Assembly (NCBI GenBank): GCA_965262555.1
Contig: OZ253543.1
Coordinates: forward strand, 1,413,583-1,477,582
Source of the DNA: Vicinamibacterales bacterium
Lineage (GTDB): Bacteria > Acidobacteriota > Vicinamibacteria > Vicinamibacterales > UBA8438
Reading direction: 5' to 3'
Length of the DNA stretch: 64,000 nucleotides
Numbering within the stretch: position 1 is the stretch's first letter; each line of letters begins with the position of its first letter. A program made the translations under genes and the position numbers. Under the pieces are notes generated by a model. The model ran no database searches. It had not been told where the DNA came from and saw nothing but the letters and a program-made list of their open reading frames with translations. Positions 5,329-57,867 of the stretch are shown piece by piece.

Positions 5329-5425
5329 CGCCCGGACAGAGGCCGTTCATGCCGCTGCCGACCCGTGCGCAACTGATCGGCTGGCTGTTGCTGCTGGCCG
5401 TGATGGTGGTCTGGATCCTGTACCG

Positions 5426-9366: not shown

Positions 9367-10316
9367 TCGCGTTCGTCTTTCCCGGCCAGGGATCCCAGCG
9401 GGTCGGGATGGGGAGGGCGCTGGCCGAGGCGTTTACTGTCTGCCGGGAGGCGTTCGCGGAGGCTGACGCTGCGCTGGGTGAACCGATCAGCCGGCTCTGC
9501 TTCGATGGCCCGGAGGATCAGCTCACGCTCACGGCGAACACGCAGCCGGCAATTCTGGCGATGAGCATGGCGGTTGATCGGCTGCTCCGGAGCCGCGGCC
9601 ACGAGCCGGCATTCCTCGCAGGGCACAGTCTGGGGGAATACTCGGCGCAGGTCGCCGCCGGCACGATCGGGTTTGCCGACGCGCTCCGGATCGTCCGTCG
9701 TCGGGGCGAGTACATGCAGATGGCGGTCCCGGTGGGGAAGGGGGCCATGGCGGCCGTTCTCGGCCTCGACGCCGACGGCGTGGAGCAGGCGTGCCGAGAG
9801 GCGGCAGATGGCGAGGTGGTCAGCCCCGCCAACTGGAACGCGCCGGGCCACGTCACGATCGCCGGGACGGCGGCGGCGGTGGAACGCACGGCCTCGCGAG
9901 CCCGCGAGTTGGGGGCGCGGCGTGTCATGCCGTTGCCGGTCAGCGCGCCGTTCCACTGTGCGCTGATGCAGCCGGCCGAGGCACGGCTCGCGCCGGAACT
10001 GCACGCGCTGGTGGTCGCGAACCCTGCCGTACCGGTGGTGGCCAATGTCGATGCCGAACCGAAGCGGACCGGACCGGAGGCGATCGACGCCCTGATCCGC
10101 CAGGTGAGTGCACCGGTGCAGTGGGAAGCGGTCGTGCGGCGGCTCGCGGCCGAGGGCGTGACGACGGTGGTTGAGGTGGGACCGGGGCGTGTGCTGAGCG
10201 GACTGATTCGGAAGATCGATCGCACGCTCACCGTCGTGAATGTCGAAGATCCCGACAGTCTCAACGCGGCCGAAGGGGCCCTCGCCACCGCGCGCGCGTC
10301 GGAGGCGGGCCGATGA
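9363..10316 (+). CDS. fabD: Malonyl-CoA:ACP transacylase FabD
   Basis: The match rests on FVFPGQGSQRVGMG...LAGHSLGEYSA...SAPFHCALM. There is an ATGA overlap with plsX. Confidence 0.9.
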   Translation: MIAFVFPGQGSQRVGMGRALAEAFTVCREAFAEADAALGEPISRLCFDGPEDQLTLTANTQPAILAMSMAVDRLLRSRGHEPAFLAGHSLGEYSAQVAAGTIGFADALRIVRRRGEYMQMAVPVGKGAMAAVLGLDADGVEQACREAADGEVVSPANWNAPGHVTIAGTAAAVERTASRARELGARRVMPLPVSAPFHCALMQPAEARLAPELHALVVANPAVPVVANVDAEPKRTGPEAIDALIRQVSAPVQWEAVVRRLAAEGVTTVVEVGPGRVLSGLIRKIDRTLTVVNVEDPDSLNAAEGALATARASEAGR

Positions 10317-11053
10317 ACGGTCTGGACGGACGCGTTGCGCTCGTGACCGGCGCATCGCGGGGTCTCGGCCGGGCGATTGCGCTTCGCCTCGCGGCGTCCG
10401 GTGCGGCGGTGGTGGCGGGTGCGCGGGCGGATCATGCCGATGCAGTGCGCCAGGAGATCGAACAGGCTGGCGGTGCTGCGGTGGCAGTGGCGCTCGATGT
10501 GACCGAACCGGCGTCGGTGTCGGCCGCAGCCGAGACGGCGCTCGACCGGTTCGGCCGAATCGACATCCTGGTGAATAACGCTGGGATCGTCCGTGATCAA
10601 CTGCTGATGCGGATGAAGCGGGACGACTGGGACGCGGTCATGGCGACGAACCTGACGTCCGCCTACGCCTGCTGTCAGGCGGTGCTCCGGCCGATGCTGA
10701 AGCAGCGCGCCGGACGGATCGTCAACATCGCCTCGGTCGTCGGTCAGTCGGGCAACCCGGGCCAGGCAAACTACGCGGCGTCGAAGGCGGGGCTGATTGG
10801 CTTCACCAAGTCGCTGGCGCAGGAAGTGGCGTCGCGAGGCATTACCGTCAACGTGGTGGCGCCCGGGATGATCGAAACCGACATGACGGCCGGGCTCGAC
10901 GAGCGGGCGCGGGCGGCGCTGGTGGATCGGATTCCGATGGGACGTCTGGGGTCGCCGAACGAGGTGGCGGGCGTTGTCGGCTTTCTCGCGTCGGATGAAG
11001 CAGCGTATATTACAGGCCAAGTCGTCGGAGTCAACGGTGGGATGTACATGTAG
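10313..11053 (+). CDS. fabG: 3-oxoacyl-ACP reductase FabG
   Basis: It has SDR motifs (VTGASRGLGRAIA, NNAGI, YAASKAG) and the typical C-terminus ITGQVVGVNGGMYM. Confidence 0.9.
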   Translation: MNGLDGRVALVTGASRGLGRAIALRLAASGAAVVAGARADHADAVRQEIEQAGGAAVAVALDVTEPASVSAAAETALDRFGRIDILVNNAGIVRDQLLMRMKRDDWDAVMATNLTSAYACCQAVLRPMLKQRAGRIVNIASVVGQSGNPGQANYAASKAGLIGFTKSLAQEVASRGITVNVVAPGMIETDMTAGLDERARAALVDRIPMGRLGSPNEVAGVVGFLASDEAAYITGQVVGVNGGMYM

Positions 11054-11065
11054 GAGGCTGAGTGC

Positions 11066-11308
11066 ATGGCGGTCGCTGACAAGGTAAAGAACATCATTGT
11101 GGAGCAGTTGGGTGTGGATGAGGAGGAGGTCACGCCGGATGCGTCGTTCGTCGATGATCTGGGCGCCGACTCGCTCGACACGGTCGAACTGGTGATGGCG
11201 TTCGAGGAGGAATTCGGTCTTGAGATTCCGGACGGGGATGCGGAGAAGATCACCCGCGTGAAGGAGGCCGTCGACTACATTGAGTCCCACACCAAGGACT
11301 CGAAGTAG
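11066..11308 (+). CDS. acpP: Acyl carrier protein
   Basis: It is 80 aa and carries the [20 protein letters not shown] phosphopantetheine-attachment motif. Confidence 0.95.
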
Positions 11309-11340
11309 ACGCGGCGGACGCACCGACGGGAGAACCACCC

Positions 11341-12582
11341 TTGCCAAGGCGCGTCGCGGTTACCGGGGTCGGCTTGGTGTCGTCGCTCGGTATTGGGACC
11401 AGCGCCAACTGGAAGGCGCTGCTGGCCGGCCGGTCCGGCATCCGGCCCATCACCCACTTCGACGCCTCCGAATTCGCATCGCGAATTGCGGGCGAAGTGC
11501 CTGACTTCGACCCGCTTGCGTTCCTGGCCAAGAAAGACGTCCGCAAGATGGACGTCTTTATCCAGTTCGCCATCGCGGCCTCGGAGTTTGCGGTGCAGGA
11601 TGCCGGGTTGCCGACCGACCGGACGCTCGGCCCGGAGGTGGGCGTCTTCATCGCGTCCGGCATCGGTGGGTTCAGTACGATCGAGCGGGAGCACCGTGCG
11701 CTGCTCGCCGGCGGTCCGCGGAAGATCTCGCCGTTCTTTATTCCGTCGGCCATCATCAATCTGGCGGCGGGACAGGTGTCGATCCGCTTCGGCGCGCAGG
11801 GCCCGAACTTAGCCACCTGCACCGCCTGCGCGGCGTCGGCGCATGCCATCGGCGACTCCTACGAGATCATCCGGCGGGGCGACGCCGAGGTGATGATCGC
11901 CGGCGGATCCGAGGCGTCGATTACGCCAATGGGGGTGGGCGGCTTCGCCGCGATGCGTGCGCTCTCGACGCGCAACGACGAGCCGGAGCGCGCTTGCCGG
12001 CCGTTCGATCAGAACCGCGATGGGTTCGTCGTTGGCGAGGGCTCGGGTGTCGTGATCCTCGAGGAGCTGGATCGGGCGCGCGCCCGGGGTGCGTCCATCT
12101 ATTGCGAACTGGTCGGCTACGGGATGTCAGCCGACGCGTTCCACATGACGGCGCCGGCCGAGAGTGGCGACGGCGCCATCCGTGTCATGCGGAACACGCT
12201 CCGATCGGCCGGGGTCGAACCGGACGTGGTGGACTACATCAACGCGCACGGCACGTCGACTCCGCACAACGACCGGACCGAGACCCTCGCGATCAGGCAG
12301 TGCTTCGGTGACCACGCCTCACGGTTGGCCATCTCCTCCACGAAGTCGATGACCGGTCATCTGCTGGGCGCGGCAGGCGGCCTCGAGGCGGGAATTTCCG
12401 CGCTCGCGATCCGCCACCAGGTGGTTCCACCCACGATCAACCTGGAGCATCCAGACCCGGACTGCGACCTGGACTACGTGCCGAACGTGAAGCGCGAGAT
12501 GTCGATCACGTACGCCCTTTCTAACTCGTTCGGGTTCGGCGGCACCAACGCCAGCCTGCTGCTCCGTCGGTACGACGGCTGA
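11341..12582 (+). CDS. fabF: 3-oxoacyl-ACP synthase II FabF
   Basis: The match rests on RRVAVTGVGLVSSLG...TACAAS...NAHGTSTPHND...SNSFGFGGTNASLL. The start codon is TTG. Confidence 0.9.
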   Translation: MPRRVAVTGVGLVSSLGIGTSANWKALLAGRSGIRPITHFDASEFASRIAGEVPDFDPLAFLAKKDVRKMDVFIQFAIAASEFAVQDAGLPTDRTLGPEVGVFIASGIGGFSTIEREHRALLAGGPRKISPFFIPSAIINLAAGQVSIRFGAQGPNLATCTACAASAHAIGDSYEIIRRGDAEVMIAGGSEASITPMGVGGFAAMRALSTRNDEPERACRPFDQNRDGFVVGEGSGVVILEELDRARARGASIYCELVGYGMSADAFHMTAPAESGDGAIRVMRNTLRSAGVEPDVVDYINAHGTSTPHNDRTETLAIRQCFGDHASRLAISSTKSMTGHLLGAAGGLEAGISALAIRHQVVPPTINLEHPDPDCDLDYVPNVKREMSITYALSNSFGFGGTNASLLLRRYDG

Positions 12583-12600
12583 CCGTCGACCGCCATTCCG

Positions 12601-13377
12601 ATGAAGATCGCCGTCTGTCTCAAGCAGGTCGTCACGCGCGACTGGCCGCTGCGCGTGGCGGAATCCGGCGCCTGGGTGCGCGACACGGACGCCACGTTCG
12701 AGATGAACGAGCCGGACGCCTATGCCCTCGAAGAGGCGCTCCGGCTGAAGGAACGGCTTGGCGGCGACGGCAGCGAAGTGGTGGCCTGCTCGGCCGGCCC
12801 GACGCGCGTCACGCAGGTGATCCGCGAGGCGCTCGCCCGCGGGGCCGATCGCGCGATCCATGTCGAAAGCGACGCGCTGGTGGAGGCCGACGCCGCCGTC
12901 ATGGCGGCGGCGCTCGCGGGCGCGATCCGCGACGAGCAGTTCGACCTCGTGCTGACCGGCCTGCAGTCGGACGATCAGGGCTTCGGCCAGACCGGCGTCA
13001 TCATGGCGGAAGGGCTCGGCCTGCCGCACGCGACGATCATCATGGAGGTAGACGCGCGGGCCGATGGCACGCTCCGCGTCAAGCGGGAGCTCGAGGGCGG
13101 CTGGTTTCAGTGGATGACATTGCCACTGCCGGCGCTGCTGACCATTCAGAGCGGTATCAACCAGCTCCGCTATGCGACGCTCCGCGGGATCATGGCCTCG
13201 AAGAGGAAGGAGATCCGGACGGTGACGCCGGACGTCGGCGACATCGCGCCAGGACAGCGGATCGTGCAGGTCTACGCGCCGGAGAGGTCGGGTGACACCC
13301 ACCTGATCGAGGGCTCGCCCAACGAGGCGGCGCGCGAGTTGATCCGCCTGCTGCGGGAGGAGGCGCGGGTACTGTGA
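12601..13377 (+). CDS. etfB: Electron transfer flavoprotein beta subunit
   Basis: The match rests on MKIAVCLKQV...DLVLTGLQSDD...LPALLTIQSGINQLRYATL. Confidence 0.9.
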   Translation: MKIAVCLKQVVTRDWPLRVAESGAWVRDTDATFEMNEPDAYALEEALRLKERLGGDGSEVVACSAGPTRVTQVIREALARGADRAIHVESDALVEADAAVMAAALAGAIRDEQFDLVLTGLQSDDQGFGQTGVIMAEGLGLPHATIIMEVDARADGTLRVKRELEGGWFQWMTLPLPALLTIQSGINQLRYATLRGIMASKRKEIRTVTPDVGDIAPGQRIVQVYAPERSGDTHLIEGSPNEAARELIRLLREEARVL

Positions 13378-14378
13378 TCCTGGCGATCGGCGAGCAGCGA
13401 GACGGCTCGCTCAACCCTGCCACGTGGGAAGTGGTGGCGGCAGCGCAGCAGATCGCCGATGCCGCGGAGGGGCCCGCCGGTCCGGTGGCGGTGGCGCTCG
13501 CGGGCGCTGGCGACACGCTGGCGTCGGCGGCGCGGGCGCTGGCCGCGGCGGACATCGCTGAGGTGATCGCCGTCGACCACACGCTGCTCGAACCGTACAC
13601 CGCCGACGGCTTCACGATGGCGCACGCGCAAGTGGTCGAGCAGCTCTCGCCCGATCTCGTACTGTGGCCGCATACCTACCAGACGCGAGACTATGCACCG
13701 GCGCTGGCGGCGCGGATCGGGAGGGTGCTGATTCCCGACTGCATCGGCACGAAGGGGCGCGACGGCCAGAGGGTCTTCGTCCGTCCGATGTTTCAGGGGA
13801 AGTTCGTCGCCGACGTGGTGGCGGACGGCGCCTCGCCGCACTGCGCCAGCATTCAGATCGGCGCGTACCGCGCCGAAGCGGCGCGGCGCGGCGAAACGCC
13901 AACTGCGATCCGGCCGGTGACGGTCACGCTCGACGCCGCCGCGATCCGGCAGCAGCCCGACGCGCCGTTCAAGGAGGCGAAGCAGGCAGTCGACTTGACG
14001 CGGGCAGAACGGATCGTCGCGGTCGGGCGCGGCATCAAGGATGCCGAACACCTGTCAATCGTGCAGGAGCTGGCACGCGCGCTCGACGCCGAGGTCGCGG
14101 CCTCACGTCCAATCTGCGACGCCGGGTGGCTCCCGATGGACCGGCAGATCGGCAGCTCAGGCCAGACCGTGGCGCCGGCGCTGTACCTGGCGCTGGGGAT
14201 CTCCGGCGCGATTCAGCACCTGGTCGGAATGAAGGGGGCGCGCACCATTGTCGCCGTCAACAAGGACGCTGACGCGCCGATCTTCGAAGTGGCGCACTAC
14301 GGCATCGTCGGGGACCTGTTCGAGATCATCCCGGCGTTACAGGCGGCGCTTGAGGGTGGAGACCCCGGGGGAGACTGA
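13374..14378 (+). CDS. etfA: Electron transfer flavoprotein alpha subunit
   Basis: It has the C-terminal FAD-binding motif QIGSSGQTVAPALYLALGISGAIQHLVGMKGARTIVAVNKDADAPIF. There is a GTGA overlap with etfB. Confidence 0.9.
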   Translation: MILAIGEQRDGSLNPATWEVVAAAQQIADAAEGPAGPVAVALAGAGDTLASAARALAAADIAEVIAVDHTLLEPYTADGFTMAHAQVVEQLSPDLVLWPHTYQTRDYAPALAARIGRVLIPDCIGTKGRDGQRVFVRPMFQGKFVADVVADGASPHCASIQIGAYRAEAARRGETPTAIRPVTVTLDAAAIRQQPDAPFKEAKQAVDLTRAERIVAVGRGIKDAEHLSIVQELARALDAEVAASRPICDAGWLPMDRQIGSSGQTVAPALYLALGISGAIQHLVGMKGARTIVAVNKDADAPIFEVAHYGIVGDLFEIIPALQAALEGGDPGGD

Positions 14379-31775: not shown

Positions 31776-32551
31776 TCAGAGATCGTTCCAGGCGGATCGG
31801 AGTATGGACAACGCCACGATCGGCACCAGGTCGGCACGCAACGTGCGCCGGCCGAGCGTCAGCGGGCGGAAGCCGGACGCGGCGGCGCGGGACACCTCGT
31901 CCGTGGTCCAGCCCCCTCGGGACCGATCACCACGACGGCGCGCGTCGGCGGCTGATCCGCACGGACCGATGCGAGCAGGGGAACATCCGGCGGCGTGATG
32001 TCCGTGGTCTCCGCGGCGGACGGCTCCAGCAGGATGATCCGAAGGACGCCGTCCGCCGCCGGTGTCTCGCGGAGGTACGCCTCGTAGACGGTCGGTGCCC
32101 GGACCTGCGGCACGACGGCGCGCCCGCACTGCTTGGCGCTGCCGATCGCGATACCGCGCCAGCGCTCGGTCAGGTGGCGGCCGCCGCCTGCGCCCGGCTC
32201 CACGCCGGCGCGCTGGCTCACCAGCGGGACGATCGCCGCGACGCCAAGCGCCGTCGCGTCGCGGACGACATCGTCCAGCTTTCGCCCCTTCAGCAGGGTG
32301 ACGGCGAGCGTCACCGGGACGCGCGACTCCGGCACCGCCGCCACCCGCGCGCCGACACGGACGATGACGCCGCGCGGATCGTCCTGCTCCACGGTCGCGT
32401 CATGCTCGCGTCCAGCGCCGTCGAAGATCCGGATCGCCGCGCCGGCACGCAGGCGCAGCACGCGTGCGAGGTGGCGTCCCTCGTCTGGCGGGAGGGGAAG
32501 GGCGTTCCCTTCGGCCGGGATGTGGGGCGCGTAGAAGCGGCGGACGCTCAT
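31776..32551 (-). pseudogene. rsmE: 16S rRNA (uracil1498-N3)-methyltransferase RsmE, interrupted by a 1-nt frameshift in this sequence
   Basis: The N-terminal 210 codons (MSVRRFYAP...VVVIGPEG) are in one frame. The canonical C-terminus (GGWTTDEVSRAAASGFRPLTLGRRTLRADLVPIVALSIL) is in another. The switch occurs at the C5 run at 31912-31916 (plus strand). Confidence 0.8.
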
Positions 32552-33171
32552 CGTGATCCCACCGCGGTGGAGCGGCGGAGCGCCAGGCCAACCCAGTCGT
32601 CTTCGGTCTCCCGTGCGACGACGGTGCAGGTTGCGCGCAGGGCGGCGCGCGCGCCGAGGCGAACCGCCGCAATCGCCAGCACCCCCGACCCGGTGCCCAG
32701 GTCGATGACGCGCCGGCTCGCCGCGATGTCCGCGCGCATCCGCTGCATGACCGACAGGCAGAGACGCGTGGAGGCGTGGTGCCCGGTGCCGAAGCCGGTC
32801 GATGGCGTGATCTCGAGCACGATGGCCGAAGCATCGGGCGCCGGCAGAGCCCATGGAGGTGCGACGACGATCTCCCCGACACGCACCGCCACGAGCGCGG
32901 CCCGCGACCGTTCCGCCCAGCCGTCATCCGGAACGTCGCGTGGCACCACACGCGCGCCGTCCGGCCCGAACGCCCGATTGATCGCACGCACCGCCGCGTC
33001 GCGCGCGCCCCGTGAGAAGAACCAGACACGGCGCGCGCCGTCCCCTGTCTCCTCGACGGCGAACGGATCGAAGTCGTCGAGGAGCCCGTCGAGACGCGGG
33101 CGAAGCGAGGCGGGTGCGGCCGGAAATTGAATGTCGAGCGTCGGGCGATCCGGCCGCGGCCCGTCAGCCAA
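32548..33171 (-). CDS. prmA: Ribosomal protein L11 methyltransferase PrmA, C-terminally short
   Basis: The match rests on VVAPPWA...LEITPSTGFGTGHHASTRLCL...VIDLGTGSGVLAIAAVRLGA. The ORF stops about 33 codons after SAM motif I. There is an ATGA overlap with rsmE. Confidence 0.7.
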   Translation of the reverse strand: MADGPRPDRPTLDIQFPAAPASLRPRLDGLLDDFDPFAVEETGDGARRVWFFSRGARDAAVRAINRAFGPDGARVVPRDVPDDGWAERSRAALVAVRVGEIVVAPPWALPAPDASAIVLEITPSTGFGTGHHASTRLCLSVMQRMRADIAASRRVIDLGTGSGVLAIAAVRLGARAALRATCTVVARETEDDWVGLALRRSTAVGSR

Positions 33172-47798: not shown

Positions 47799-48668
47799 TC
47801 AGACGCCCGTCTTGATCCGGCGCCACTCCGCTTCCATCTCATCGAGTGAAACGCCGGAAAGCTCGATGCCGCGGTCGCGGAAGCGCGCCTCGAGTTGCGT
47901 GAACCGCTCCGTGAACTTCCGGTTCGCGCTGCGCAGGGCGGTCTCGGGATCGACGCCGAGGTGGCGGGCGAGATTGGCGAGGGCGAAGAGCAGGTCGCCC
48001 AGCTCCTCCTCGATCGCGGCGGCCGATCCCTCGGTCCTGGCGTTGGCCAGTTCCGCCAGCTCCTCGATGACTTTCGCCTCGACGCCGGACGGATCGGGCC
48101 AGTCGAAGCCGGCGCTTGCGGCGCGCTTGCCCAGCCGGTAGGCGCGGAGCAACGCGGGCAGGCTGTCCGGCACCGTGCCCAGCAGGCTCGGTTCCTCACC
48201 CGCCGTCACCCGTTCCGTCGACTTGATCGCATCCCACTGCCGCTTCACGTCGGCCGGCGTCATCGGCGATCCCGTCATGGCGCCGCCGTTGCCGGCCGCT
48301 GCCTCGTCCGTCCCGGACGGGAAGACATGCGGATGGCGGCGGATCAGCTTGTCGCAGATCGCGCGCAGCGAGTCGCTGATATGGAAGTCTCCCCGCTCGT
48401 GCGCCACCTGCGCCAGGAAGACCGCCTCGAGCAAAAAGTCACCCAGCTCGTCGCAGAGTCCGTCCGCATCACCCCGATCGATCGCATCGACCACCTCGTA
48501 GGTCTCCTCGATCACGTAGGGCCGGAGCGACTCCAGGGTCTGCTCCCGGTCCCAGGCGCAGCCCTGCTCCGACCGGAGCGTCCGCATCAGCGACACGAGG
48601 CGCGCGAAGCCGTCGGCGGCAGCGCGCACCTTGTCGTCCCGGTGGTCACCGGGGGGAGCGGTTGACAT
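47799..48668 (-). CDS. mazG: Nucleoside triphosphate pyrophosphohydrolase MazG
   Basis: It has tandem MazG domains (CAWDREQTLESLRPYVIEETYEVVDAI..., ELGDLLFALANLARHLGVDPE..L). I chose the ATG at 48668 inside the longer ORF. Confidence 0.85.
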   Translation of the reverse strand: MSTAPPGDHRDDKVRAAADGFARLVSLMRTLRSEQGCAWDREQTLESLRPYVIEETYEVVDAIDRGDADGLCDELGDFLLEAVFLAQVAHERGDFHISDSLRAICDKLIRRHPHVFPSGTDEAAAGNGGAMTGSPMTPADVKRQWDAIKSTERVTAGEEPSLLGTVPDSLPALLRAYRLGKRAASAGFDWPDPSGVEAKVIEELAELANARTEGSAAAIEEELGDLLFALANLARHLGVDPETALRSANRKFTERFTQLEARFRDRGIELSGVSLDEMEAEWRRIKTGV

Positions 48669-48714
48669 CGTGGCGTATGCTAGCAGGTCGCCTGCGGCGC
48701 ATCCGCGGCATACG

Positions 48715-49542
48715 ATGCAGATCACCTTCCTGGGGACCGGCACGTCGGCCGGCGTGCCGGTCATCGGCTGCGACTGCGCGACGTGCCGCTCCGATGATCC
48801 GCACGACCGCCGTCAGCGGCCGTCACTCTGGCTCCGCTTCGACGATGGCCGCTCGGTCCTGCTCGACGCCTCGCCCGACCTGCGGGCACAGGCGCTGGGC
48901 TTCCGCATCCCGCGCGTCGACGCGATCGTCCTGACGCATGCGCACGCCGATCACATCCTGGGCCTCGACGACGTCCGCATCTACAACTTCCGACAGAAGG
49001 CGGCGATCCCGGTCTACGGAGCAGAACGGGCGCTGACGCAGGTGCGACGGATGTTCGCATACGTCTTCGACGCGGCGGCGCAGAAGGGAGGCGGACTGCC
49101 GCAGCTCGATCTCCGGCCGCTCGCCGGGCCATTCACGCTCGGCGGCACCACCATCGTCCCGGTGCCGGTTCGGCATGGCCGCCTGCCGGTCCTCGGATTT
49201 CGGATCGGCAACTTCGCCTACCTGACCGACTGCAACCGCATCCCGGAGGTCTCCTGGCCGCTGCTCCAGGACCTCGACATCCTGGTGCTCGACGCCCTCC
49301 GCCACAAGCCGCACCCGACCCACTTCACGCTGGCCGAGGCGATCGCGACGGCCCGGCGCATCGGCGCCCGGCAGACCTGGTTCACCCACATGACGCACGA
49401 CCTCCCGCACGCGCAAACCTGCGCCGACCTGCCCGACGGGATGTCGCTCGCCTGGGACGGCCTGGAACTGGAGGTCGCCACGGACACAGCCCCGGCCGCC
49501 GCGCTTCTCGCTTCCGCCGACGCCGCCATCGGAGACTACTGA
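48715..49542 (+). CDS. MBL-fold metallo-hydrolase (PhnP-like)
   Basis: The match rests on MQITFLGTGTSAGVP..C.C..C, LTHAHADHILGLDD and THMTHD. I chose the ATG at 48715 within ORF 48631..49542. Confidence 0.8.
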   Translation: MQITFLGTGTSAGVPVIGCDCATCRSDDPHDRRQRPSLWLRFDDGRSVLLDASPDLRAQALGFRIPRVDAIVLTHAHADHILGLDDVRIYNFRQKAAIPVYGAERALTQVRRMFAYVFDAAAQKGGGLPQLDLRPLAGPFTLGGTTIVPVPVRHGRLPVLGFRIGNFAYLTDCNRIPEVSWPLLQDLDILVLDALRHKPHPTHFTLAEAIATARRIGARQTWFTHMTHDLPHAQTCADLPDGMSLAWDGLELEVATDTAPAAALLASADAAIGDY

Positions 49543-49645
49543 CCCGCTCCCGGATCGGCAGGGGTGGGCCCAGACCGCGCAGGCACCTCCGCAGCGGGTT
49601 CAACCCTGGTGCCTCCGGGTTCCAACGCGCCGCATCGTCGTAGTT

Positions 49646-49688: not shown

Positions 49689-50651
49689 TCACGGCATGAC
49701 ATGCGTACGGAGATCCCTCCCTGTGGGCGGTGTGGAACCCGCGCGCAGCGCGGGATCCAACGGACTCGTGGGCACCTGAAGGGTGTCCACAGGCCGGACA
49801 CCGTCCACAGGGCTTGCATGGAGTCGTTCGAATTCCAACGGTGACCGATAGCCCAGTGCGGAATGGCGCCGCCGCGTGTTGTACCACCCTTCGATGAAAT
49901 CGAACACGGCCGCCCGCGCCTCGGCGTACGTTGAGAGCGTCGTGCGGTCGAGTAACTCGCACTCGAGCGTGGCGAAGAAGCTCTCGGCCATCGAGTTGTC
50001 GAAGCAATCGCCCGTCGAGCCCATCGACTGCGCCACACCCCATCCGCGGCAGCGGGCGCCGAAGGCCAGCGCCGTGTACTGGCAGCCTCTGTCCGAGTGA
50101 TGGATGACGCCAGCCGGCCGGCGTTGCGCCACAGCCATCTCCAGCGCCTCGATGACCAGCTCCGTGCGCAGGTGCGTGGCCATCGCCCAGCCGACGACCC
50201 GCCGGCTGAACACGTCGAGCACGATGGCCAGGTACAGGAAGCCGACGAGCGTCGGCACGTAGGTGATATCGGCAACCCACAGGCGATTCGGCGCGTCGGC
50301 CTCGAACCGCCGCTCGACGCGATCCGGCGCCGGCTGGGCCTGCGAATCCCGACGGGTCGTGCGCGGCGCGCGACGGCGGCTGACACCGGCCACGCCCGCG
50401 GCGCGCATCACCCGCGCGACCCGCGTGCGGCTGACCGCCACGCCGGCGTCGGCCAGTTCGGCATGCATCCGCGGCGCGCCGTACGTCCTCCGGCTGCCGG
50501 CATGGATCGCCTGCACACGCGCCGTCAGGTCCGCATCGGCCTGCGCGCGAGCCGACAGTGGCCGCCGACGCCACGCGTAGTACCCGCTCGGGGAGACGCC
50601 GAACACGCGGGCCATCGTGGCGACACGGAAACGAGCCTGATTCGCACTCAT
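49689..50651 (-). CDS. IS3-family transposase OrfB (DDE integrase core)
   Basis: The match rests on LWVADITYVPT...LAIVLDVFSRRVVGW...HSDRGCQYT...GDCFDNSMAESFF..LE.E...ALGYRSPLEFE. It is probably expressed as an OrfAB fusion by -1 frameshifting. Confidence 0.9.
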   Translation of the reverse strand: MSANQARFRVATMARVFGVSPSGYYAWRRRPLSARAQADADLTARVQAIHAGSRRTYGAPRMHAELADAGVAVSRTRVARVMRAAGVAGVSRRRAPRTTRRDSQAQPAPDRVERRFEADAPNRLWVADITYVPTLVGFLYLAIVLDVFSRRVVGWAMATHLRTELVIEALEMAVAQRRPAGVIHHSDRGCQYTALAFGARCRGWGVAQSMGSTGDCFDNSMAESFFATLECELLDRTTLSTYAEARAAVFDFIEGWYNTRRRHSALGYRSPLEFERLHASPVDGVRPVDTLQVPTSPLDPALRAGSTPPTGRDLRTHVMP

Positions 50652-50956
50652 GAACCGGTAGACCTCCCGGGTCCGGTCTCCCGTGCGAACCAGGCCGTCG
50701 CTTTTGCCAGAATCTCACGTTCCTCGCGCAGACACCGGTTCTCCCGGCGAAGCCGCCGGAGTTCCTCGCGTTCTTCGGTACGCAGGCCGTCGGTCCGCTC
50801 GCCGGCATCTCGATCAGCCTGCGCGACCCAGTTGCGGATCGCTTGGGCCGACGGCTCAAACTCCCGAGTCAACTCCTCCGGCGTGCGTCCGGACCGAACC
50901 AGATCGACCATCTGCTGCCGGAATACCGCCGGATACGGTGGCCTCGTTCTCGGCAT
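50648..50956 (-). CDS. IS3-family transposase OrfA (HTH + leucine zipper)
   Basis: The match rests on YPAVFRQQMVDLVRSGRTPEELTREFEPSAQAIRNWV...EELRRLRRENRCLREEREILAKATAWFA. The slippery GCA AAA GCG lies at 50701-50707. Confidence 0.9.
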   Translation of the reverse strand: MPRTRPPYPAVFRQQMVDLVRSGRTPEELTREFEPSAQAIRNWVAQADRDAGERTDGLRTEEREELRRLRRENRCLREEREILAKATAWFARETGPGRSTGS

Positions 50957-51186: not shown

Positions 51187-51393
51187 ATGCACGAAAAGGC
51201 AACTAGCACGAGCAAGTCCCTTGAGGTCCACCAGCAACTTAAGGGCGGCGTGTACCGGGATGTTGTCCGCATCGCAGAGAAGCATCGAAGATACTCGCAG
51301 GGCCGGCTCGTACCTGAAGGAACCATCAGGGTGAAGTGCCGTCCCCGCGTGACCCAGCACGGCGGCGCCACAAAGACCGCGGTGGAGGAGTAG
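51187..51393 (+). CDS. Hypothetical small protein (68 aa), possible first gene of the DUF262 operon
   Basis: An AGGAGG at 51172-51177 lies 9 nt before the ATG. The stop is 3 nt before the DUF262 start. I recognise no family, so this is coding-potential evidence only. Confidence 0.35.
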   Translation: MHEKATSTSKSLEVHQQLKGGVYRDVVRIAEKHRRYSQGRLVPEGTIRVKCRPRVTQHGGATKTAVEE

Positions 51394-51396
51394 GCA

Positions 51397-53343
51397 ATGG
51401 AAACACACAAGACCGCGCTCTTCGACCTCTTTCGCCGCGAGCGACAGTACCGCGTCCCTCTGTTTCAGCGCCCGTATGTGTGGTCCGAAGAGACCCAGTG
51501 GGAGCCGCTTTGGAATGACATTGCGGATCGTGCGCAAACCGTGATGGAGGCATCGGAACGACGGCGCTCGGTCCCGCCCGTTCGCAACCATTTCCTTGGC
51601 GCCATCGTCACCCAGCGCCTGGACGTGTTCGGCGCGCAGATCGATGCAGCGGAGGTCATCGACGGACAGCAACGCCTAACCACACTGCAGGTTGTCCTCG
51701 CCGCCTTCCGCGATTTCCTGCAGACGCTGTCTGAGGAGGACGCGACTGCCCTCGCACGCGTAGCCAGCGATCTTGCGACATTGACGAAGAACGCGGGCGT
51801 GATGGCTGCGGAGACCGAGGTGTTCAAGATTTGGCCCACGAACGTTGACCGCAAGGTCTTCGAGCAGGTCTTGACCTCGGGCAACGTCGCCGAGGTAAAA
51901 GAGCGCTTCCCCCTCGTCCGCCGCAAGTACCAACGCATACCCGACCCGCGTCCGCGCCTAGCTGAAGCCTACCTCTACTTCCATGAACGCGTCGCGGAGT
52001 TCTGCACTTCCGTTGAAGAACCGGTCGTTTCCGACATCCAGAAGCGAGTTCACGCACTGTATGAGGCGTTGCGGCGACACATCTTGCTGGTGCACATCGA
52101 ACTACAGGATGACGATGACCCGCAAGTAATCTTCGAGTCCTTGAATGCACGGGGTGAACCGCTCCTGCCCTCGGATCTCATCCGCAACTTCGTCTTCATG
52201 CGCGCCGGCGCCCAGAAAATAGACGCCAACGGTCTGTACGACAAACGGTGGAAGGAATACGACGAAAGACGGGACCCGGAGCAGAAGGGTGGCGAAGGCC
52301 GCTTCTGGAAGCAGATGGACCGCCAGGGGCGGATTCATCGTCCGCGCCTCGATCTCTTCATCTACCACTACCTGCAGTCAATGCTCTCCGAGGAGGTCGG
52401 TATAGGGCATCTGTACAAGACCTTCAGGGGTTGGTGGGAAGGATCGCCTGACGAGCGTGATGTCGAGGAGGAACTCGCCCGGATGCGAACACATAGCGAC
52501 GTGTTCGCCCGGCTGGCTGTACCGGGGAACGACGGCGCCGTCGAAGCATTTGCGCGACGCCTCAAGGTTCTGGACACAAGCACCATCTACCCGGTTCTCT
52601 TGTTACTTCTTGCGGCGCGGAAGGACCGGGTCGCTGACGGGGACCTCGAGGGAATACTTCAGGATCTCGAGTCATACCTGATCCGCCGCCTCGTCTGCGG
52701 CCTCACGACGAAAAGCTACAACAAGTTCTTCCTCAGCCTGCTTCGTCGGCTTCGCGAGGCCGACGTGATCACTAGAAGCCTGGTGCAAGAGCACCTCCTC
52801 GAGGGAACTGGGCCGGCCGTTGTTTGGCCGGACGACACTGCGTTTTCGCGCGCATGGCTTTCGCGGCCGATCTATGCGGATATCAAGTCTCACCGCGTTG
52901 AGATGATCCTCAGCGTTATCAACGCACGCCTGCATTCAGCCAAGCAGGAGCCTGTCACGTTTGAGGGAAAGCTCACCGTCGAACACGTCCTTCCGGTTGC
53001 GTGGGCAGCGCCCGCCTGGCCAGACCCGCCGAGTCACCCCAACCCCGAAGACGGTGAAGAGACGGCAGAAGAGTTGCGGAACCGGTTACTGCACACCTTC
53101 GGCAACCTCACGCTGCTGACGCAGGAGCTAAACTCCTCGGTGAGCAATGGGCCCTACGGGGAAAAGAAGCCCGAGATCACGGAACAGAGTCTCATCCGCT
53201 TGAACGCGTGGTTTCAGAGGGAAGCTGAGTGGAATGAGACCAAGATCCAGGAGCGCGGGAAGGCTCTCTTGAATCCAGCGAAGGACGTGTGGCCACGGCC
53301 AAGACCGGCCGAGGCGACAGCAGAGGCCGACTCAGAATGTTAA
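51397..53343 (+). CDS. DUF262 + DUF1524 protein (GmrSD/SspE/BrxU-like NTPase-nuclease)
   Basis: The N-terminal DUF262 motifs are FQRPYVW (51466-51483) and IDGQQRLTTL (DGQQR at 51661-51675). The C-terminal His-Me/HNH-like DUF1524 motifs are LTVEHVLPVAW (52981-) and HTFGNLTLLTQELNSSVSNGPYGEKK (53101-). A GGAGGAG RBS lies upstream. Confidence 0.85.
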   Translation: METHKTALFDLFRRERQYRVPLFQRPYVWSEETQWEPLWNDIADRAQTVMEASERRRSVPPVRNHFLGAIVTQRLDVFGAQIDAAEVIDGQQRLTTLQVVLAAFRDFLQTLSEEDATALARVASDLATLTKNAGVMAAETEVFKIWPTNVDRKVFEQVLTSGNVAEVKERFPLVRRKYQRIPDPRPRLAEAYLYFHERVAEFCTSVEEPVVSDIQKRVHALYEALRRHILLVHIELQDDDDPQVIFESLNARGEPLLPSDLIRNFVFMRAGAQKIDANGLYDKRWKEYDERRDPEQKGGEGRFWKQMDRQGRIHRPRLDLFIYHYLQSMLSEEVGIGHLYKTFRGWWEGSPDERDVEEELARMRTHSDVFARLAVPGNDGAVEAFARRLKVLDTSTIYPVLLLLLAARKDRVADGDLEGILQDLESYLIRRLVCGLTTKSYNKFFLSLLRRLREADVITRSLVQEHLLEGTGPAVVWPDDTAFSRAWLSRPIYADIKSHRVEMILSVINARLHSAKQEPVTFEGKLTVEHVLPVAWAAPAWPDPPSHPNPEDGEETAEELRNRLLHTFGNLTLLTQELNSSVSNGPYGEKKPEITEQSLIRLNAWFQREAEWNETKIQERGKALLNPAKDVWPRPRPAEATAEADSEC

Positions 53344-54188
53344 AGCAGGCGTCCCAGGATCTGAAGTTCGACGAGATCGGCTATTGGTCCGAGGTCAAGC
53401 TCGACATCATCAAGAAGTACGCGGCGGCGTACACCAGAATTCTCGCGCGCCAGGCAGGTCTTTCATTCAGCTACATCGACGGGTTCGCGGGAACGGGTGT
53501 CCACGTAAACAAGGAGTCTGGCAAGTATGTCGCCGGCAGTCCCTTGAACGCGCTTGAGGTCGATCCGCCGTTCAACGAGTACTTCCTCGTCGATCTGGAT
53601 GGGGATAAGGTCGACCAGCTGCGGGCCTTTCCTGAGGTGCAAGGTCGTTCCGATGTACACGTCATACATGGCGACTGCAACAGGGTGCTTCTTGAAGACG
53701 TGTTTTCCCAGGTTCGCTACGAGGACTACCGCCGCGGGCTGTGCCTGCTCGATCCCTACGGGCTGCACCTAGACTGGGAAGTGATTCGCACGGCCGGCGA
53801 GATGCGCTCGATAGAGATCTTCCTGAACTTTCCCATCATGGACATGAACCGCAACGCGCTGTGGCACCTTCCGGAGAATGCGAGCGCCGCGGGCGTAGCC
53901 CGAATGACCGCCTTCTGGGGTGACGACTCATGGCGTGAAGCCACCTATCGTAAGCAGCGGACGCTCTTCGGCGAGGATGAGGATGTGAAGCTCGGCAATC
54001 GAGAGGTGACAAATTCCTTTCGCGAGCGGCTGCGTGACGTCGCTGGTTTCCAACATGTTCTGGAACCGATGCCCATGCGTAACTCCAACAATGCCGTCGT
54101 CTACTACCTGTTCTTCGCGAGCCAGCGGCCAGTCGCGTCAAAGATCGTCCAGGACATCTTCGCCAGCTACAGGAACAGGAAGGGATAG
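53337..54188 (+). CDS. TcmP-like protein (three-Cys-motif partner protein), methyltransferase-like fold
   Basis: The N-terminus is [24 protein letters not shown] (53475-53498) resembles SAM motif I, and LLDPYG (53745-53762) resembles the DPPY-type motif IV. The end is [11 protein letters not shown]. The start overlaps the upstream stop (ATGTTAA). I recognise the family from memory only. Confidence 0.75.
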
Positions 54189-54189
54189 G

Positions 54190-54954
54190 ATGGCGAAGTC
54201 GGCGATCGAATGGACTGAGTCCACGTGGAATCCGGTCACCGGCTGCACGAAGATCAGCCCCGGCTGCAAACACTGCTACGCCGAGCGTATGGCGAAGCGC
54301 CTGCAGGGGATGGGGCAGGCAAACTACGCCAACGGCTTTCAGTGCACGCTGCAACCCCACATGCTCGAGCTGCCGCTCAGCTGGAAGAAGCCGCAGACGA
54401 TCTTCGTCAACTCGATGAGCGACCTCTTCCACAAAGACGTGCCACTCGTCTACATCCAGAAGGTCTTCGAAGTCATGCGGCGCGCGCACTGGCACCAGTT
54501 CCAGGTGCTCACGAAGCGTGCTGGTCGCCTTGCACACCTAGACGCCAGCCTTGAGTGGGCGCCGAACATCTGGATGGGTGTCAGCGTCGAGACCGAAAAG
54601 TACTGCTCGCGCATCGATGACCTCCGCAGCACAAAGGCGCCGCTCAAGTTCCTGTCTCTGGAGCCGCTGCTTGGACCGCTGCCCAACCTGAACCTCAAAG
54701 GCATGGACTGGGTGATCGTCGGCGGCGAGTCCGGTCCAAAGGCGCGGCCGATGGATCCGGCGTGGGTGACTGATCTTCGCGACCAGTGCCGTCACGCCGG
54801 GGTCCCGTTCTTCTTCAAGCAGTGGGGCGGCACGAACAAGAAGAAGGCCGGGCGGGAGCTCGCGGGCCGGACGTGGGACGAGATGCCCAGGGAACCCGGG
54901 CCACGTGCGACACGTCGCCAACGGGGGACGGCCTTGGCCGTGGTCCAACCATGA
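54190..54954 (+). CDS. DUF5131 (phage Gp37/Gp68 family) three-Cys protein
   Basis: The match rests on [26 protein letters not shown] (CX6CX2C at 54244-54276), [35 protein letters not shown] and [16 protein letters not shown]...FFFKQWGG. The start lies 1 nt after the TcmP stop. Confidence 0.85.
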
Positions 54955-55200: not shown

Positions 55201-55890
55201 GTGGCCAGATCGACAATGACCTGCGGTACGGGACCACCACTGGCGGTACAATGTTTCTCACAGCTAGCTCCACCGGAGACTGCCATACCCAGCCTGTCAA
55301 AACGCATCGTGGAGCACGCCTGCTCGCTTCCGGAGGCCGTGCCGATCTGCGCAGGCACATTGCTTCATCTCGGCAACCGCGCAGCAGTCGATCAAGCACT
55401 GTCGCGCCTCGCCCGCTCCGGGAGACTCCTGCGGATCTGCCAAGGGGTCTACATGCGACCCGTCGAGACCCGGTTCGGGCCTTGCGCGCCGAGCGTCGAC
55501 AAAGCGCTCAACGCCCTCGCGGATCTGTGGAACGAGACCATCGTTCCCTGTGGCGGTGCCGCGGCGCACGTGCTCGGCCTCACGACCCAGGTCCCGGTGC
55601 GGTCGGTCTACCTCACATCGGGTCCCGGTCGCCGTTTGCGCTTCGGCAATCTGGATGTCGAACTACGCCATGCGCCGCGCTGGCAGCTCGCGGCCCCTCA
55701 CCACCGGGCGGGCGAAGTTATCCGGGCCCTGGCCTGGCTCGGGCCGGACGAGGTCCGATCGGGGCTCCAAGCCCTTTCACCCGGCCTGTCCCGCGAGGAT
55801 ATCGACCAGCTCGCCGCGGCGCGGGCGACCATGCCGCATTGGATGGCGGAGCCCGTGAGCATGCTGGTCGCGCCGACGGCAAGAGCGTGA
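55201..55890 (+). CDS. DUF6088-family protein (AbiEi-like antitoxin/wHTH)
   Basis: The match rests on LGNRAAVDQALSRLARSGRLLRICQGVYMRP...GGAAAHVLGLTTQVPVRSVYLTSGPGRRLRFG...VIRALAWLGPDEV. The start is uncertain (GTG 55201 or ATG 55216). Confidence 0.7.
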   Translation: MARSTMTCGTGPPLAVQCFSQLAPPETAIPSLSKRIVEHACSLPEAVPICAGTLLHLGNRAAVDQALSRLARSGRLLRICQGVYMRPVETRFGPCAPSVDKALNALADLWNETIVPCGGAAAHVLGLTTQVPVRSVYLTSGPGRRLRFGNLDVELRHAPRWQLAAPHHRAGEVIRALAWLGPDEVRSGLQALSPGLSREDIDQLAAARATMPHWMAEPVSMLVAPTARA

Positions 55891-55947: not shown

Positions 55948-56853
55948 GTGAGTGCCTTTGATGGTTTTGTCTTTGTCGACTGGTCCGCCAACTCTTCACC
56001 GAAGACCGGGAAGGACTCCATATGGGTCGCGGAGGCCTCAACTGGGACAGACATCGAACTGCACAACCTGAGAACGAGAGAAGCAGCAACCCGACATGTA
56101 CTCGGCGTACTCCGAAGGGCTGTCGGGCGGGGACAACGCTTACTGGTCGGGTTCGACTTTGCCTATTCCTACCCGCTAGCAGTACTGCAGCACCTGGCAA
56201 GCAACCATGGACCGGCCGACTTCACGGAGCTGTGGCAGGCCCTACACAGTCGAATTCGAGACTCCGCGAACAACAGCAACGATCGGTACTCGTTTGCGGC
56301 GTGGGCAAATGAGCACTGGTTCAAGGAGCACTACTACTGGGGCTTCCCCTCTCCGTCGCACGCCGGCCCGTGGCTCCGGGGCACGAAGACAGACACGGAG
56401 TTCGCTGAGTTCCGCTTGGCAGAGTCGTGCACGCGCGGCACCCAGCCTACGAGGAAGCTGGCCTATTCCGGCTCGGTCGGCTCGCAAGCACTACTCGGGA
56501 TGCGTCGGTTGTACGAGTTACGCAACGACCCCGCGCTTGCACCCGCGAGCGTTTTGTGGCCAATGGAGACGGGATTCACCTTATCGGTGGCGCCGCCAGG
56601 AACGGCCCTGATCGTCCACGCCGAGATCTACCCCACTCCGATACGTCGGCTGGCACGGGCGGCTGGGATTGTCATGCCAGCACCGGTACGTGGAAGCGTA
56701 AACGACGCGCAACAAGTCTGGGCATGCGTGGCACTCGCCCGCGATGAGGACAGCCGTGGAGTGCTGGCTGACCGATTCCGAAGGCCTCGGTTCATCAGTA
56801 CGGATCAACAGGAAGATCAGGCTCGCCAGGAGGGATGGATCTTGTGGTCGTGA
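55948..56853 (+). CDS. Hypothetical protein, possibly RNase H-fold (DUF429-like) nuclease
   Basis: A GAGGGAG RBS lies 7 nt before the GTG. The N-terminal FVFVDWSANSSPKTGKDSIWVA, the later HAEIYPTP and NDAQQVWACVALA give a D...E...D pattern. That pattern is reminiscent of RNase H-like/DUF429 proteins. The family assignment is a weak recollection. Confidence 0.6.
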   Translation: MSAFDGFVFVDWSANSSPKTGKDSIWVAEASTGTDIELHNLRTREAATRHVLGVLRRAVGRGQRLLVGFDFAYSYPLAVLQHLASNHGPADFTELWQALHSRIRDSANNSNDRYSFAAWANEHWFKEHYYWGFPSPSHAGPWLRGTKTDTEFAEFRLAESCTRGTQPTRKLAYSGSVGSQALLGMRRLYELRNDPALAPASVLWPMETGFTLSVAPPGTALIVHAEIYPTPIRRLARAAGIVMPAPVRGSVNDAQQVWACVALARDEDSRGVLADRFRRPRFISTDQQEDQARQEGWILWS

Positions 56854-56881: not shown

Positions 56882-56968
56882 GGAGCGGCCGACGGCGGTG
56901 CGGTGCACGTGCTTGGGCTCACCACCCAGGTTCCGGTTCGGTCGGTCTACCTCACCACGGGCCCGGGT
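56882..56968 (+). pseudogene. Fragment of a second DUF6088 gene
   Basis: Positions 56894-56968 align to 55552-55629 with 65/75 identical nt and one 3-nt gap. It encodes GGAVHVLGLTTQVPVRSVYLTTGPG, compared with GGAAAHVLGLTTQVPVRSVYLTSGPG. A TAG lies 6 codons upstream, and there is no homology beyond the fragment. Confidence 0.7.
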
Positions 56969-57090
56969 GACGAGTCCTCTGCGGATCTGCCTGCCTTACT
57001 CTCCCGGATCGAGAATCGCTGCCGCCGACGCCGCCACGCCCCACTACTGACCGAGCCGCGTTCCGCCGTTCCGCATGTCCATCGAATCGC

Positions 57091-57867
57091 TCAAATGCTG
57101 AGGACGAACCCCACCGTCACGCGCACCATGCCCAGATGATGATCGGCGTCGCCCTCCATGAACACGCGCTCCGTCCCTTCGAGCGCCGGAATGGCGAGGC
57201 GCCGGTAGTCCGCTGCGATCCGGAGCGCGAGTCGGTCGGTGAGATGAACGTCCACGCCTCCGCCGGCGGCCAGAGCGAATCCGGAAGAGAACGCGCGGAA
57301 GCAGCTTGAAGACGCGCCGCTGTCGAGTTCATTGGCCGTCCCGGCGAATGACGCGCGGCCGGCGAGGACCTGGACGAACCGCGTGCTGCGCCGGACGCGC
57401 GACAGTCGGTACTGCACGCCTCCCATGAAGGTGTGGAACCCTGCATGGATCTCGGCACACGGCGCCGGATCGGCTCGACCCGGCGTCTCGAGGCGGTCGC
57501 TCGCCCACCACCCCCTTCCCATTTCGCCCACGACGGCCAGAGAAGGGCTGAGATGCAACCCCGCGGACAGGAACGTGGCCGCTTTCGGTTGGGCGGCCGG
57601 CCGCTCCCAGAACGACGCTGCGCCAAGGGCGAGCTGGAGGCTCCCTCGCTCGAAGTGCCTCGCCGGCTGGCGTTGGTCATCCGACGCGCCTTGCTCCGTG
57701 CGCCCGGCCGGCGGTTGGGCTGGCGTGCGAGCGAGACGTGGTGATCGCAGTGCCGGAACCGCGTGTCCGCTGGCTGGCACCGATTGCGCGACCGCAACGG
57801 ATCCGTTCAGGACCCCCATCATGGTCACGAGAGCAATTCCCCACCTGGCGATGTGGTCAATCTGCAT
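57091..57867 (-). CDS. Outer-membrane beta-barrel protein
   Basis: It has the signal peptide MQIDHIARWGIALVTMMGVLNGSVAVAQS. It has alternating-hydrophobic strands and a terminal aromatic-type end (VRVTVGFVLSI). A strong RBS (AAGGAGGAG) lies upstream. I chose the ATG at 57867 inside ORF 57091..58071. Confidence 0.7.
   Translation of the reverse strand: MQIDHIARWGIALVTMMGVLNGSVAVAQSVPASGHAVPALRSPRLARTPAQPPAGRTEQGASDDQRQPARHFERGSLQLALGAASFWERPAAQPKAATFLSAGLHLSPSLAVVGEMGRGWWASDRLETPGRADPAPCAEIHAGFHTFMGGVQYRLSRVRRSTRFVQVLAGRASFAGTANELDSGASSSCFRAFSSGFALAAGGGVDVHLTDRLALRIAADYRRLAIPALEGTERVFMEGDADHHLGMVRVTVGFVLSI

Follow-up and report, generated by a model that had tools for sequence, protein, structure and literature searches.

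The operon described here occupies positions 51397 to 54954 of a 64,000-nucleotide stretch of DNA from a Vicinamibacterales bacterium (contig OZ253543.1, positions 1,413,583 to 1,477,582; this whole stretch is hereafter the window), and encodes a GmrSD-like nuclease followed by the TcmP and DUF5131 proteins. The three genes do not make up a new obligate system. On balance, and with modest confidence, we read the operon as two separable, autonomous and mobile defence-type modules that share a transcript and are carried by an integrated island of approximately 7.5 kb, because each module persists under constraint without the other, alleles in which TcmP is interrupted by an IS3-family insertion sequence (IS), designated TcmP::IS3, retain the nuclease, and the GmrSD-like protein HEC-06 acts alone. 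The first module (51397-53343) would be a HEC-06/DndI-like GmrSD, in which a DUF1524 His-Me nuclease, controlled by a DUF262 NTPase (motif DGQQR), cuts or nicks foreign DNA, acting alone like validated GmrSD-like proteins. The second (53337-54954) would be a two-enzyme, S-adenosylmethionine (SAM)-dependent nucleic-acid-modifying unit, with TcmP as an RlmJ-like methyltransferase bearing a D-P-Y motif IV and DUF5131 as a [4Fe-4S]/SAM radical enzyme (motifs CX6CX2C and GGESG) acting upon the same substrate. This pair would work without GmrSD, and appears to reside habitually within restriction operons or at their 3' ends, as well as in prophages and on plasmids.

All three genes lie on the forward strand. 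The GmrSD-like gene (51397-53343, 648 amino acids) was delimited as an open reading frame (ORF) with matches to the Pfam families GmrSD_N (PF03235, E = 9.8e-37) and GmrSD_C (PF07510, E = 2.6e-25), TcmP (53337-54188, 283 amino acids counted from the ATG) by the model TIGR04474 (E = 1.3e-60; 205.6 bits against a curated cutoff of 53) with its PF07505 partner immediately downstream, and that partner, DUF5131 or Gp37-Gp68 (54190-54954, 254 amino acids), by PF07505 itself (E = 9.7e-104). These Pfam and NCBIfam searches, all far beyond chance, bore out the three families named in a first-pass annotation made from the sequence alone. The translational coupling that it had proposed was evident at both junctions: the ATG of TcmP shares seven nucleotides with the 3' end of the GmrSD gene, including the TAA stop codon (ATGTTAA, 53337-53343), and a single nucleotide separates TcmP from DUF5131 (TAGgATG, 54186-54192). 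The motifs that it had quoted were also located in the three proteins (DGQQR, DGFAGTG, LDPYG and CX6CX2C).

Separation of the nuclease from the TcmP-DUF5131 pair

Two samples of TcmP loci were compared with the window. A scan of a genome collection returned at least 599 matching stretches, 580 of which encode a TcmP relative, and the best 80 were analysed (55-78% identity); a further 80 loci were viral or proviral, and GmrSD was looked for within 6-7 kb over all 160. DUF5131 was present in the locus for 78 of the 80 genome loci, adjacent to TcmP wherever the loci were mapped, and adjoined TcmP in 61 of the 80 viral or proviral loci, where the two genes were convergent (35), ordered DUF5131 to TcmP (14) or ordered TcmP to DUF5131 (12). 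Relatives of the window GmrSD were detected by tblastn within 7 kb of none of the 80 genome loci, nor at any of these loci by a clade hidden Markov model (HMM) derived from as many as 120 GmrSD homologues and sensitive to a 23%-identical GmrSD in locus L091, and GmrSD was likewise found at none of the 80 viral or proviral loci. With partner adjacency in any order and GmrSD absent, the pair is therefore robust and order-independent, and GmrSD does not form part of it.

Viewed from the nuclease, nine of twelve GmrSD-clade contexts lacked the pair (homologues 86, 68, 65, 64, 61, 56, 54, 53 and 33% identical); this is a small sample without phylogenetic correction, comprising three loci from a single-protein metagenome scan and nine homologue look-ups, the scan having given only those three loci. 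The pair-less homologues stand alone or behind other defence operons, which included a DISARM-like operon, a methyltransferase/helicase operon, and a type I restriction-modification (R-M) operon followed by DarT. Consistent co-occurrence of nuclease and modification genes, which marks SspE- and DndI-type systems, was not observed in either direction (0/160 TcmP loci; 3/12 GmrSD contexts). The neighbourhood statistics that the first-pass annotation had called for therefore upheld one half of its proposal, namely that TcmP and DUF5131 are a conserved pair (adjoining in 139 of the 160 other TcmP loci), and went against the other half, the link to GmrSD (0/160, with nine of twelve GmrSD contexts pair-less).

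Close relatives located the breakpoints between the modules. At L085 and L086, which represent the same chromosomal locus in sibling strains (97-99.9% nucleotide identity), the GmrSD and DUF5131 genes are 100% identical to those of the window and TcmP carries a 1.7-kb IS3 insertion at 53939-53942. L084 (87% over 51326-54370) encodes GmrSD, TcmP and a truncated DUF5131, followed by a DrmD-like helicase. Homology to L081-83 (87%) was restricted to 53277-54890, the pair there lacking GmrSD and lying 76 nucleotides after a type I HsdR gene, whilst homology to L090/91 (90%) was restricted to 51391-53324, GmrSD there lacking the pair and being followed by a helicase. The recombination junction between the modules is thereby placed at 53277-53324 on the forward strand, inside the 3'-terminal part of the GmrSD ORF, a segment that doubles as the TcmP leader; alignment across this junction showed the TcmP leader of L081 to be a leftover of approximately 60 nucleotides of the GmrSD 3' end. 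Ratios of non-synonymous to synonymous substitution rates were 0.30 for GmrSD (window versus L090), 0.14 for TcmP and 0.15 for DUF5131 (both window versus L081). Once the modules have parted, all three genes stay intact and subject to purifying selection.

Loss of a putative modification gene in the presence of the nuclease, a state deleterious in DndI-type systems, was seen here in two assemblies in the form of TcmP::IS3. As natural variants, these alleles with an identical GmrSD argue against a DndI-style dependence. The proposal that the pair writes a mark which GmrSD reads finds no support as a general rule, given the absence of GmrSD from all 160 other TcmP loci, the mostly pair-less closest GmrSD homologues, the separate modules and the TcmP::IS3 alleles. 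The TcmP::IS3 alleles with intact GmrSD also led us to reject classical R-M, with the pair shielding the host from GmrSD. The IS3 insertions lie at 8606-10321 of L085 and 6185-7900 of L086, with a four-nucleotide overlap resembling a target-site duplication, and L086 harbours an additional DDE_Tnp_1 element 5' of a small ORF that precedes GmrSD; the island is an IS hot spot. In L084, a second, divergent DUF5131 gene (4929-5747, 50% identical) lies partnerless beside the truncated trio, and the DrmD-like SNF2 helicase (within 9231-14059; E = 6.7e-261) is followed by a gene for a 543-amino acid protein with no PADLOC match.

Families and predicted activities of the two modules

The nuclease joins, in one polypeptide and through a linker, an N-terminal DUF262/ParB-like domain with the family's (I/V)DGQQR NTPase motif, here (I)DGQQR (DGQQR at residues 89-93), to a C-terminal DUF1524 His-Me nuclease domain with its (D/E)H-x-x-P motif (EHVLP, 529-533) and downstream Asn; GNLTLL begins at residue 569 and NSSVSN at 579. 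This organisation is that of HEC-06, GmrSD and BrxU. As a family, GmrSD enzymes are characterised by cleavage that depends on modified DNA (such as hmC or glc-hmC). Full-length PADLOC matches were obtained to Orf5 (E = 5.9e-100), the best match and a name whose meaning could not be established, mREase_IV (E = 5.3e-84) and HEC-06 (E = 1.1e-63); the gene is of a catalogued kind. HEC-06 protects by itself, and mutants of its DGQQR motif or nuclease residues lose defence; GmrSD-like genes are themselves often embedded in other defence operons (bioRxiv 10.1101/2024.01.29.577857). Homologues of GmrSD typically lie at the end of such operons, and the window GmrSD differs in overlapping the start of another module.

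The same two-domain architecture is shared with DndI and SspE, the two precedents of DUF262-DUF1524 proteins that read a host DNA modification made by neighbouring genes; DndI senses a phosphorothioate written by its neighbours and damages cells that lack the mark. In a phmmer search of PDB sequences, DndI (9JFL) was the sole match to the window GmrSD (E = 7.2e-12), with similarity confined to approximately 110 N-terminal and 65 C-terminal residues, and the BrxU and SspE structures were not matched. In contrast to those systems, phosphorothioation genes are absent around the window operon: none of sspABCD or dndBCDE was found on the island by ORF, Pfam and PADLOC searches, nor in a 16.6-kb Pfam-called stretch of L085 extending from approximately 6 kb upstream to 5 kb downstream of the operon. 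A further difference is that strains with TcmP::IS3 retain GmrSD, whereas DndI harms modification-less cells. The GmrSD part of the locus is ordinary.

TcmP gave no match to Pfam even at E values up to 10, none to PDB sequences at E values up to 10 and none to a PHROG family. In PADLOC it corresponds to PDC-M41A (E = 1.6e-70; residues 11-279 against profile positions 8-274 of 275), and its motifs are DGFAGTG (48-54), GSP (67-69), GDCN (112-115) and LDPYG (138-142). An AlphaFold2 model of TcmP (predicted local distance difference test score, pLDDT, 78; predicted template-modelling score 0.82) was searched with Foldseek, and the top eleven matches were all RlmJ/DUF519 structures (E = 4e-7 to 6e-6; template-modelling (TM) score 0.44-0.50). 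In an hhalign comparison of the TcmP profile with Escherichia coli RlmJ (probability 49.9%, E = 1.6e-4), the GSP motif paired with the GSP of RlmJ, and an 11-residue stretch of TcmP containing motif IV paired with RlmJ RRGLILIDPPYE; the GSP and motif IV residues are invariant across 23 TcmP sequences. The LLDPYG segment, earlier described as DPPY-like, thereby aligns with motif IV of RlmJ (RRGL-x-L-(L/I)-D-P-(P)-Y), at the hhalign probability of only 50%. A D-P-Y motif IV is typical of exocyclic-amine methylation, for example at adenine N6, and RlmJ, the 23S rRNA m6A2030 methyltransferase, is the best structural match to TcmP. TcmP was not recovered as a sequence member of the RlmJ family, and differs from RlmJ in having an obligate radical-SAM-like partner and in residing on mobile elements. 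What is new here is that TcmP, a predicted class I SAM methyltransferase, is RlmJ-like by its modelled fold, with an aligned D-P-Y motif IV.

DUF5131 corresponds to PDC-M41B in PADLOC (E = 1.1e-124), the PDC-M30B profile scoring almost equally. Canonical radical SAM enzymes combine, on a partial TIM barrel, a CX3CX2C motif for the [4Fe-4S] cluster with a GGE motif that binds SAM. DUF5131 resembles enzymes of this kind (spore photoproduct lyase, TIGR04471) in its N-terminal three-Cys motif, GGE-type motif and modelled beta/alpha core, and departs from them in its spacing, CX6CX2C in place of CX3CX2C. This motif spans residues 19-29, and C19, C26, C29, GGESG (178-182) and C200 are invariant in 29 DUF5131 sequences, which substantiates the three-Cys motif of the first-pass annotation; the finding that DUF5131 carries invariant CX6CX2C and GGESG motifs is likewise new here. 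The match to TIGR04471 ('radical SAM mobile pair protein A') was partial (E = 1.8e-25, 89.7 bits, below the cutoff of 355), and no match was found to PF04055 (Pfam, E up to 10) or to PDB sequences (E up to 10). The structural model was of moderate confidence (pLDDT 71), with a core of alternating strands and helices, and Foldseek returned nothing significant; the best match by TM score (0.43) was spore photoproduct lyase, with lipoyl synthase appearing by TM score only. The structural check proposed earlier accordingly gave an RlmJ-like fold for TcmP and nothing significant for DUF5131. In RadicalSAM.org, DUF5131 is a radical-SAM subgroup, Megacluster-5-2, beside spore photoproduct lyase (PMC9477430).

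The pair had been thought part of a trio not described as a defence system, and it is in fact already catalogued: PDC-M41, comprising TcmP and DUF5131, is one of 145 untested 'guilt-by-embedding' candidates in PADLOC-DB, defined as cassettes embedded in type I R-M, BREX or DISARM operons (bioRxiv 10.1101/2024.01.29.577857). Both window proteins match PDC-M41 at full length, their genes are adjacent and coupled with one nucleotide between them, and relatives of the pair lie embedded among restriction genes, in keeping with the criterion by which the candidates were discovered; the window pair differs in that it follows a type IV enzyme and does not lie inside a type I R-M, BREX or DISARM operon.

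Relatives of both proteins are numerous. Of 8,000 candidates scored for TcmP, at least 7,710 were relatives passing E = 1e-5, and the corresponding search for DUF5131 gave at least 8,000 candidates; among its 120 best matches DUF5131 was 75-92% identical, and the few organism names span Myxococcota and Gammaproteobacteria. Homologues of TcmP were found on at least 103 IMG/VR contigs and 27 plasmids, whilst 179 phage records contained DUF5131 homologues, for the most part lacking TcmP and located among early genes. Neighbours of the pair on its own strand were heterogeneous, the tightly coupled ones often being restriction components: HsdR lies three nucleotides 5' of the pair in L078, a ResIII helicase gene overlaps TcmP in L060, with an N6_N4 methyltransferase downstream, and other tight partners were HsdM (L055), a methyltransferase (L076) and nSTAND3 (L067). 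Housekeeping genes also occurred as neighbours in metagenome-assembled genomes (MAGs; carboxyl transferase, PFK and epimerase). On pSymA of Sinorhizobium meliloti, our own ORF listing placed TcmP on the same strand as, and approximately 78 nucleotides 3' of, the Hna defence gene, and the two have been reported to be induced together. In Gordonia phage BaxterFox, a TcmP homologue lies immediately after the immunity repressor.

Several individual loci merit description. In L044 (5849-8557), TcmP and DUF5131 occupy one frame without an intervening stop codon, a possible natural fusion, with an internal Met start also present. On the strand opposite and facing Hna-TcmP in pSymA (L096, 3367-9028) lie a DUF5131 gene and then a PDC-M30A-like gene of 415 amino acids, so that a single DUF5131 gene is flanked by two different partner-type genes. 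The BaxterFox genome (L095, NC_031226.1) encodes an unannotated DUF5131 homologue (32209-32937, forward strand, 55% identical), over which three small hypothetical genes (39-41) are annotated antisense; the homologue is convergent with the TcmP-like gene 42.

The pair is thus a previously flagged, mechanistically blank candidate, for which this work supplies a hypothesis based on structure and a series of natural alleles (the complete trio, the pair without the nuclease, the nuclease without the pair, and TcmP::IS3). It is very widespread, occurring on plasmids, in the immunity regions of prophages and in restriction operons, and the analysis provides a predicted biochemical frame for it, namely an N-methyltransferase of RlmJ-like type whose D-P-Y motif is intact, acting with a CX6CX2C radical-SAM-like enzyme. 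Even inside a defence island, tight coupling in an operon is not sufficient to define a system.

Possible coupling between the modules and competing readings

Several observations weigh against two autonomous modules. The seven-nucleotide overlap of GmrSD and TcmP is genuine translational coupling. Three of the twelve GmrSD-clade contexts directly precede a DUF5131 pair, with three partner subtypes, and this adjacency is, in our informal judgement, more than would be expected of random neighbours within islands. One of these contexts (L180-182) encodes a GmrSD 56% identical to that of the window and a PDC-M41A protein of 311 amino acids (subfamily PDLC04635, E = 2.9e-129) only 26% identical to the window TcmP; another (L087) encodes a GmrSD 54% identical to that of the window and 75% identical to that of L180, together with a split PDC-M30A-like partner gene. 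In both, GmrSD and the DUF5131 pair lie 3' of type III Mod-Res genes. Nucleotide homology between L180 and L087 spans GmrSD and DUF5131, which are 74-84% identical, and skips the middle gene, the PDC-M41A and PDC-M30A-like genes being wholly different; the partner gene has to all appearances been swapped as a cassette. The order Mod, Res, GmrSD, partner and DUF5131 was observed on many contigs (L180, 1-8726; L087, 535-8792). Within the clade of at least 85% nucleotide identity, moreover, the trio looks ancestral and later dismantled in every direction, because L081 retains the remnant of the GmrSD 3' end. The only solved structure matched by the GmrSD sequence, DndI, is coupled to DNA modification, the DUF5131 model is only moderately confident and its PDB matches are non-significant, and our literature searches on DUF5131, TcmP and PDC-M41/M30 found no functional study.

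These points could be accommodated by a modification-sensing trio limited to this GmrSD clade, which we regard as a less likely alternative. TcmP and DUF5131 would mark host DNA, and the DUF262 domain of GmrSD would sense the mark in the manner of SspE, licensing the nuclease against unmarked invader DNA. The junction overlap fits such an arrangement, as do the recurrence of the GmrSD-partner-DUF5131 order with three partner subtypes and GmrSDs 54-100% identical, an exchange of the middle gene between L180 and L087 that looks like the swapping of a specificity subunit, a motif IV of the N-methyltransferase type in TcmP, and a nearest solved homologue, DndI, which like SspE reads a modification. 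Set against this, none of the 160 other TcmP loci has a GmrSD-like gene, nine of the twelve clade contexts are pair-less, the modules remain intact and under purifying selection once apart, and the pair equally trails HsdR, Res, HsdM and Hna. The TcmP::IS3 alleles with intact GmrSD count out a DndI-like form of this model, with a nuclease that harms cells lacking the mark; an SspE-style coupling confined to this clade, in which the nuclease would be inactive without the mark, is possible. The more specific proposal, that the pair writes a novel radical-SAM-made nucleic-acid mark (for example a further-processed N6-methyladenine) read by the GmrSD of this clade, seems rather unlikely. If true, SspE and DndI would be joined by a third class of GmrSD-like defence that senses a modification, its specificity being set by a TcmP-like subunit exchanged among lineages.

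It is also improbable, in our estimation, that the pair is non-defensive, that is, a nucleic-acid modification or repair module of mobile elements that hitch-hikes in restriction operons beside an unrelated GmrSD, whether through self-protective anti-restriction DNA modification, RNA modification or lesion repair of the spore photoproduct lyase type. The mostly TcmP-less DUF5131 homologues of phage early-gene regions, the viral contigs and plasmids with TcmP homologues, and the many housekeeping neighbours in MAGs would suit such a role, and so would the closest fold to TcmP being an rRNA methyltransferase, the best, non-significant fold match to DUF5131 being a DNA repair lyase, and the pair having no obvious effector domain. 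However, type I and type III restriction operons repeatedly harbour the pair, embedded in the same orientation, and it also trails Hna; the TcmP homologue of a temperate phage stands right after the immunity repressor, where prophage defence genes are typically found; and TcmP has no PHROG family. The partner also diversifies and is swapped whilst DUF5131 stays 75-90% identical, which fits conflict systems better.

Island setting and minor features

The defence-island setting described by the first-pass annotation was confirmed in its low GC content, upstream IS3 element and downstream AbiEi-like gene. The GC content was 0.59-0.63 across 51-55 kb, 0.66 at 55-56 kb and 0.62 at 56-57 kb, compared with values of mostly 0.68-0.74 over the preceding 10 kb, and that of third codon positions was 0.73-0.84 in the three operon genes against 0.85-0.90 in flanking host genes. 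The IS3-family element (49689-50956, reverse strand) comprises orfA (50648-50956) and orfB (49689-50651), with matches to HTH_Tnp_1, rve, HTH_21 and rve_3. A 37-nucleotide imperfect direct repeat lies at 49508-49544, at the 3' end of a metallo-beta-lactamase-fold gene (48631-49542), and again at 57016-57052 (81% identity to the left copy), the GC dip of 51-57 kb sitting between the two copies. As the repeat duplicates a gene end and brackets low-GC DNA, these approximately 7.5 kb look like an integrated island, and the repeats, its putative borders, resemble those of att type.

The first-pass annotation had entertained a fourth gene, an ORF of 68 amino acids at 51187-51393 (forward strand) 5' of GmrSD. 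Being without a family match in Pfam, NCBIfam, PADLOC and PHROGs, and not conserved with GmrSD outside sibling strains, this doubtful ORF was not counted as a gene: L084 retains just its last 68 nucleotides or so, and homology to L090/91 begins at 51391, past nearly all of it. The region is probably the leader or promoter region of the operon; a promoter and terminator scan over 50.9-56 kb gave nothing above shuffled sequences. An 18-nucleotide inverted repeat (89% complementary; 53293-53310 and 54926-54943) brackets TcmP-DUF5131, and was set aside as probably due to chance because its right arm lies beyond the region homologous to L081.

Downstream of the operon, and outside it, the AbiEi/DUF6088-like gene (55201-55890, forward strand) matched DUF6088 (E = 1.1e-20) and the PADLOC AbiEi profile (E = 4e-56). 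Directly 3' of it, in the position expected of an AbiEii toxin, is an ORF of 301 amino acids (55948-56853, forward strand) with no significant match in Pfam (one match, E = 0.8), PADLOC or PHROGs. It matched solely the 'unknown domain' of the NF011066 MobB fusion protein (E = 1.6e-24), and could be a new AbiEi partner. A 76-nucleotide direct repeat (83%) was observed at 55554-55629 and 56893-56968, the second copy being a fragment of another AbiEi-like gene (ORF 56903-57139) and therefore a degraded duplicate at the right end of the island.

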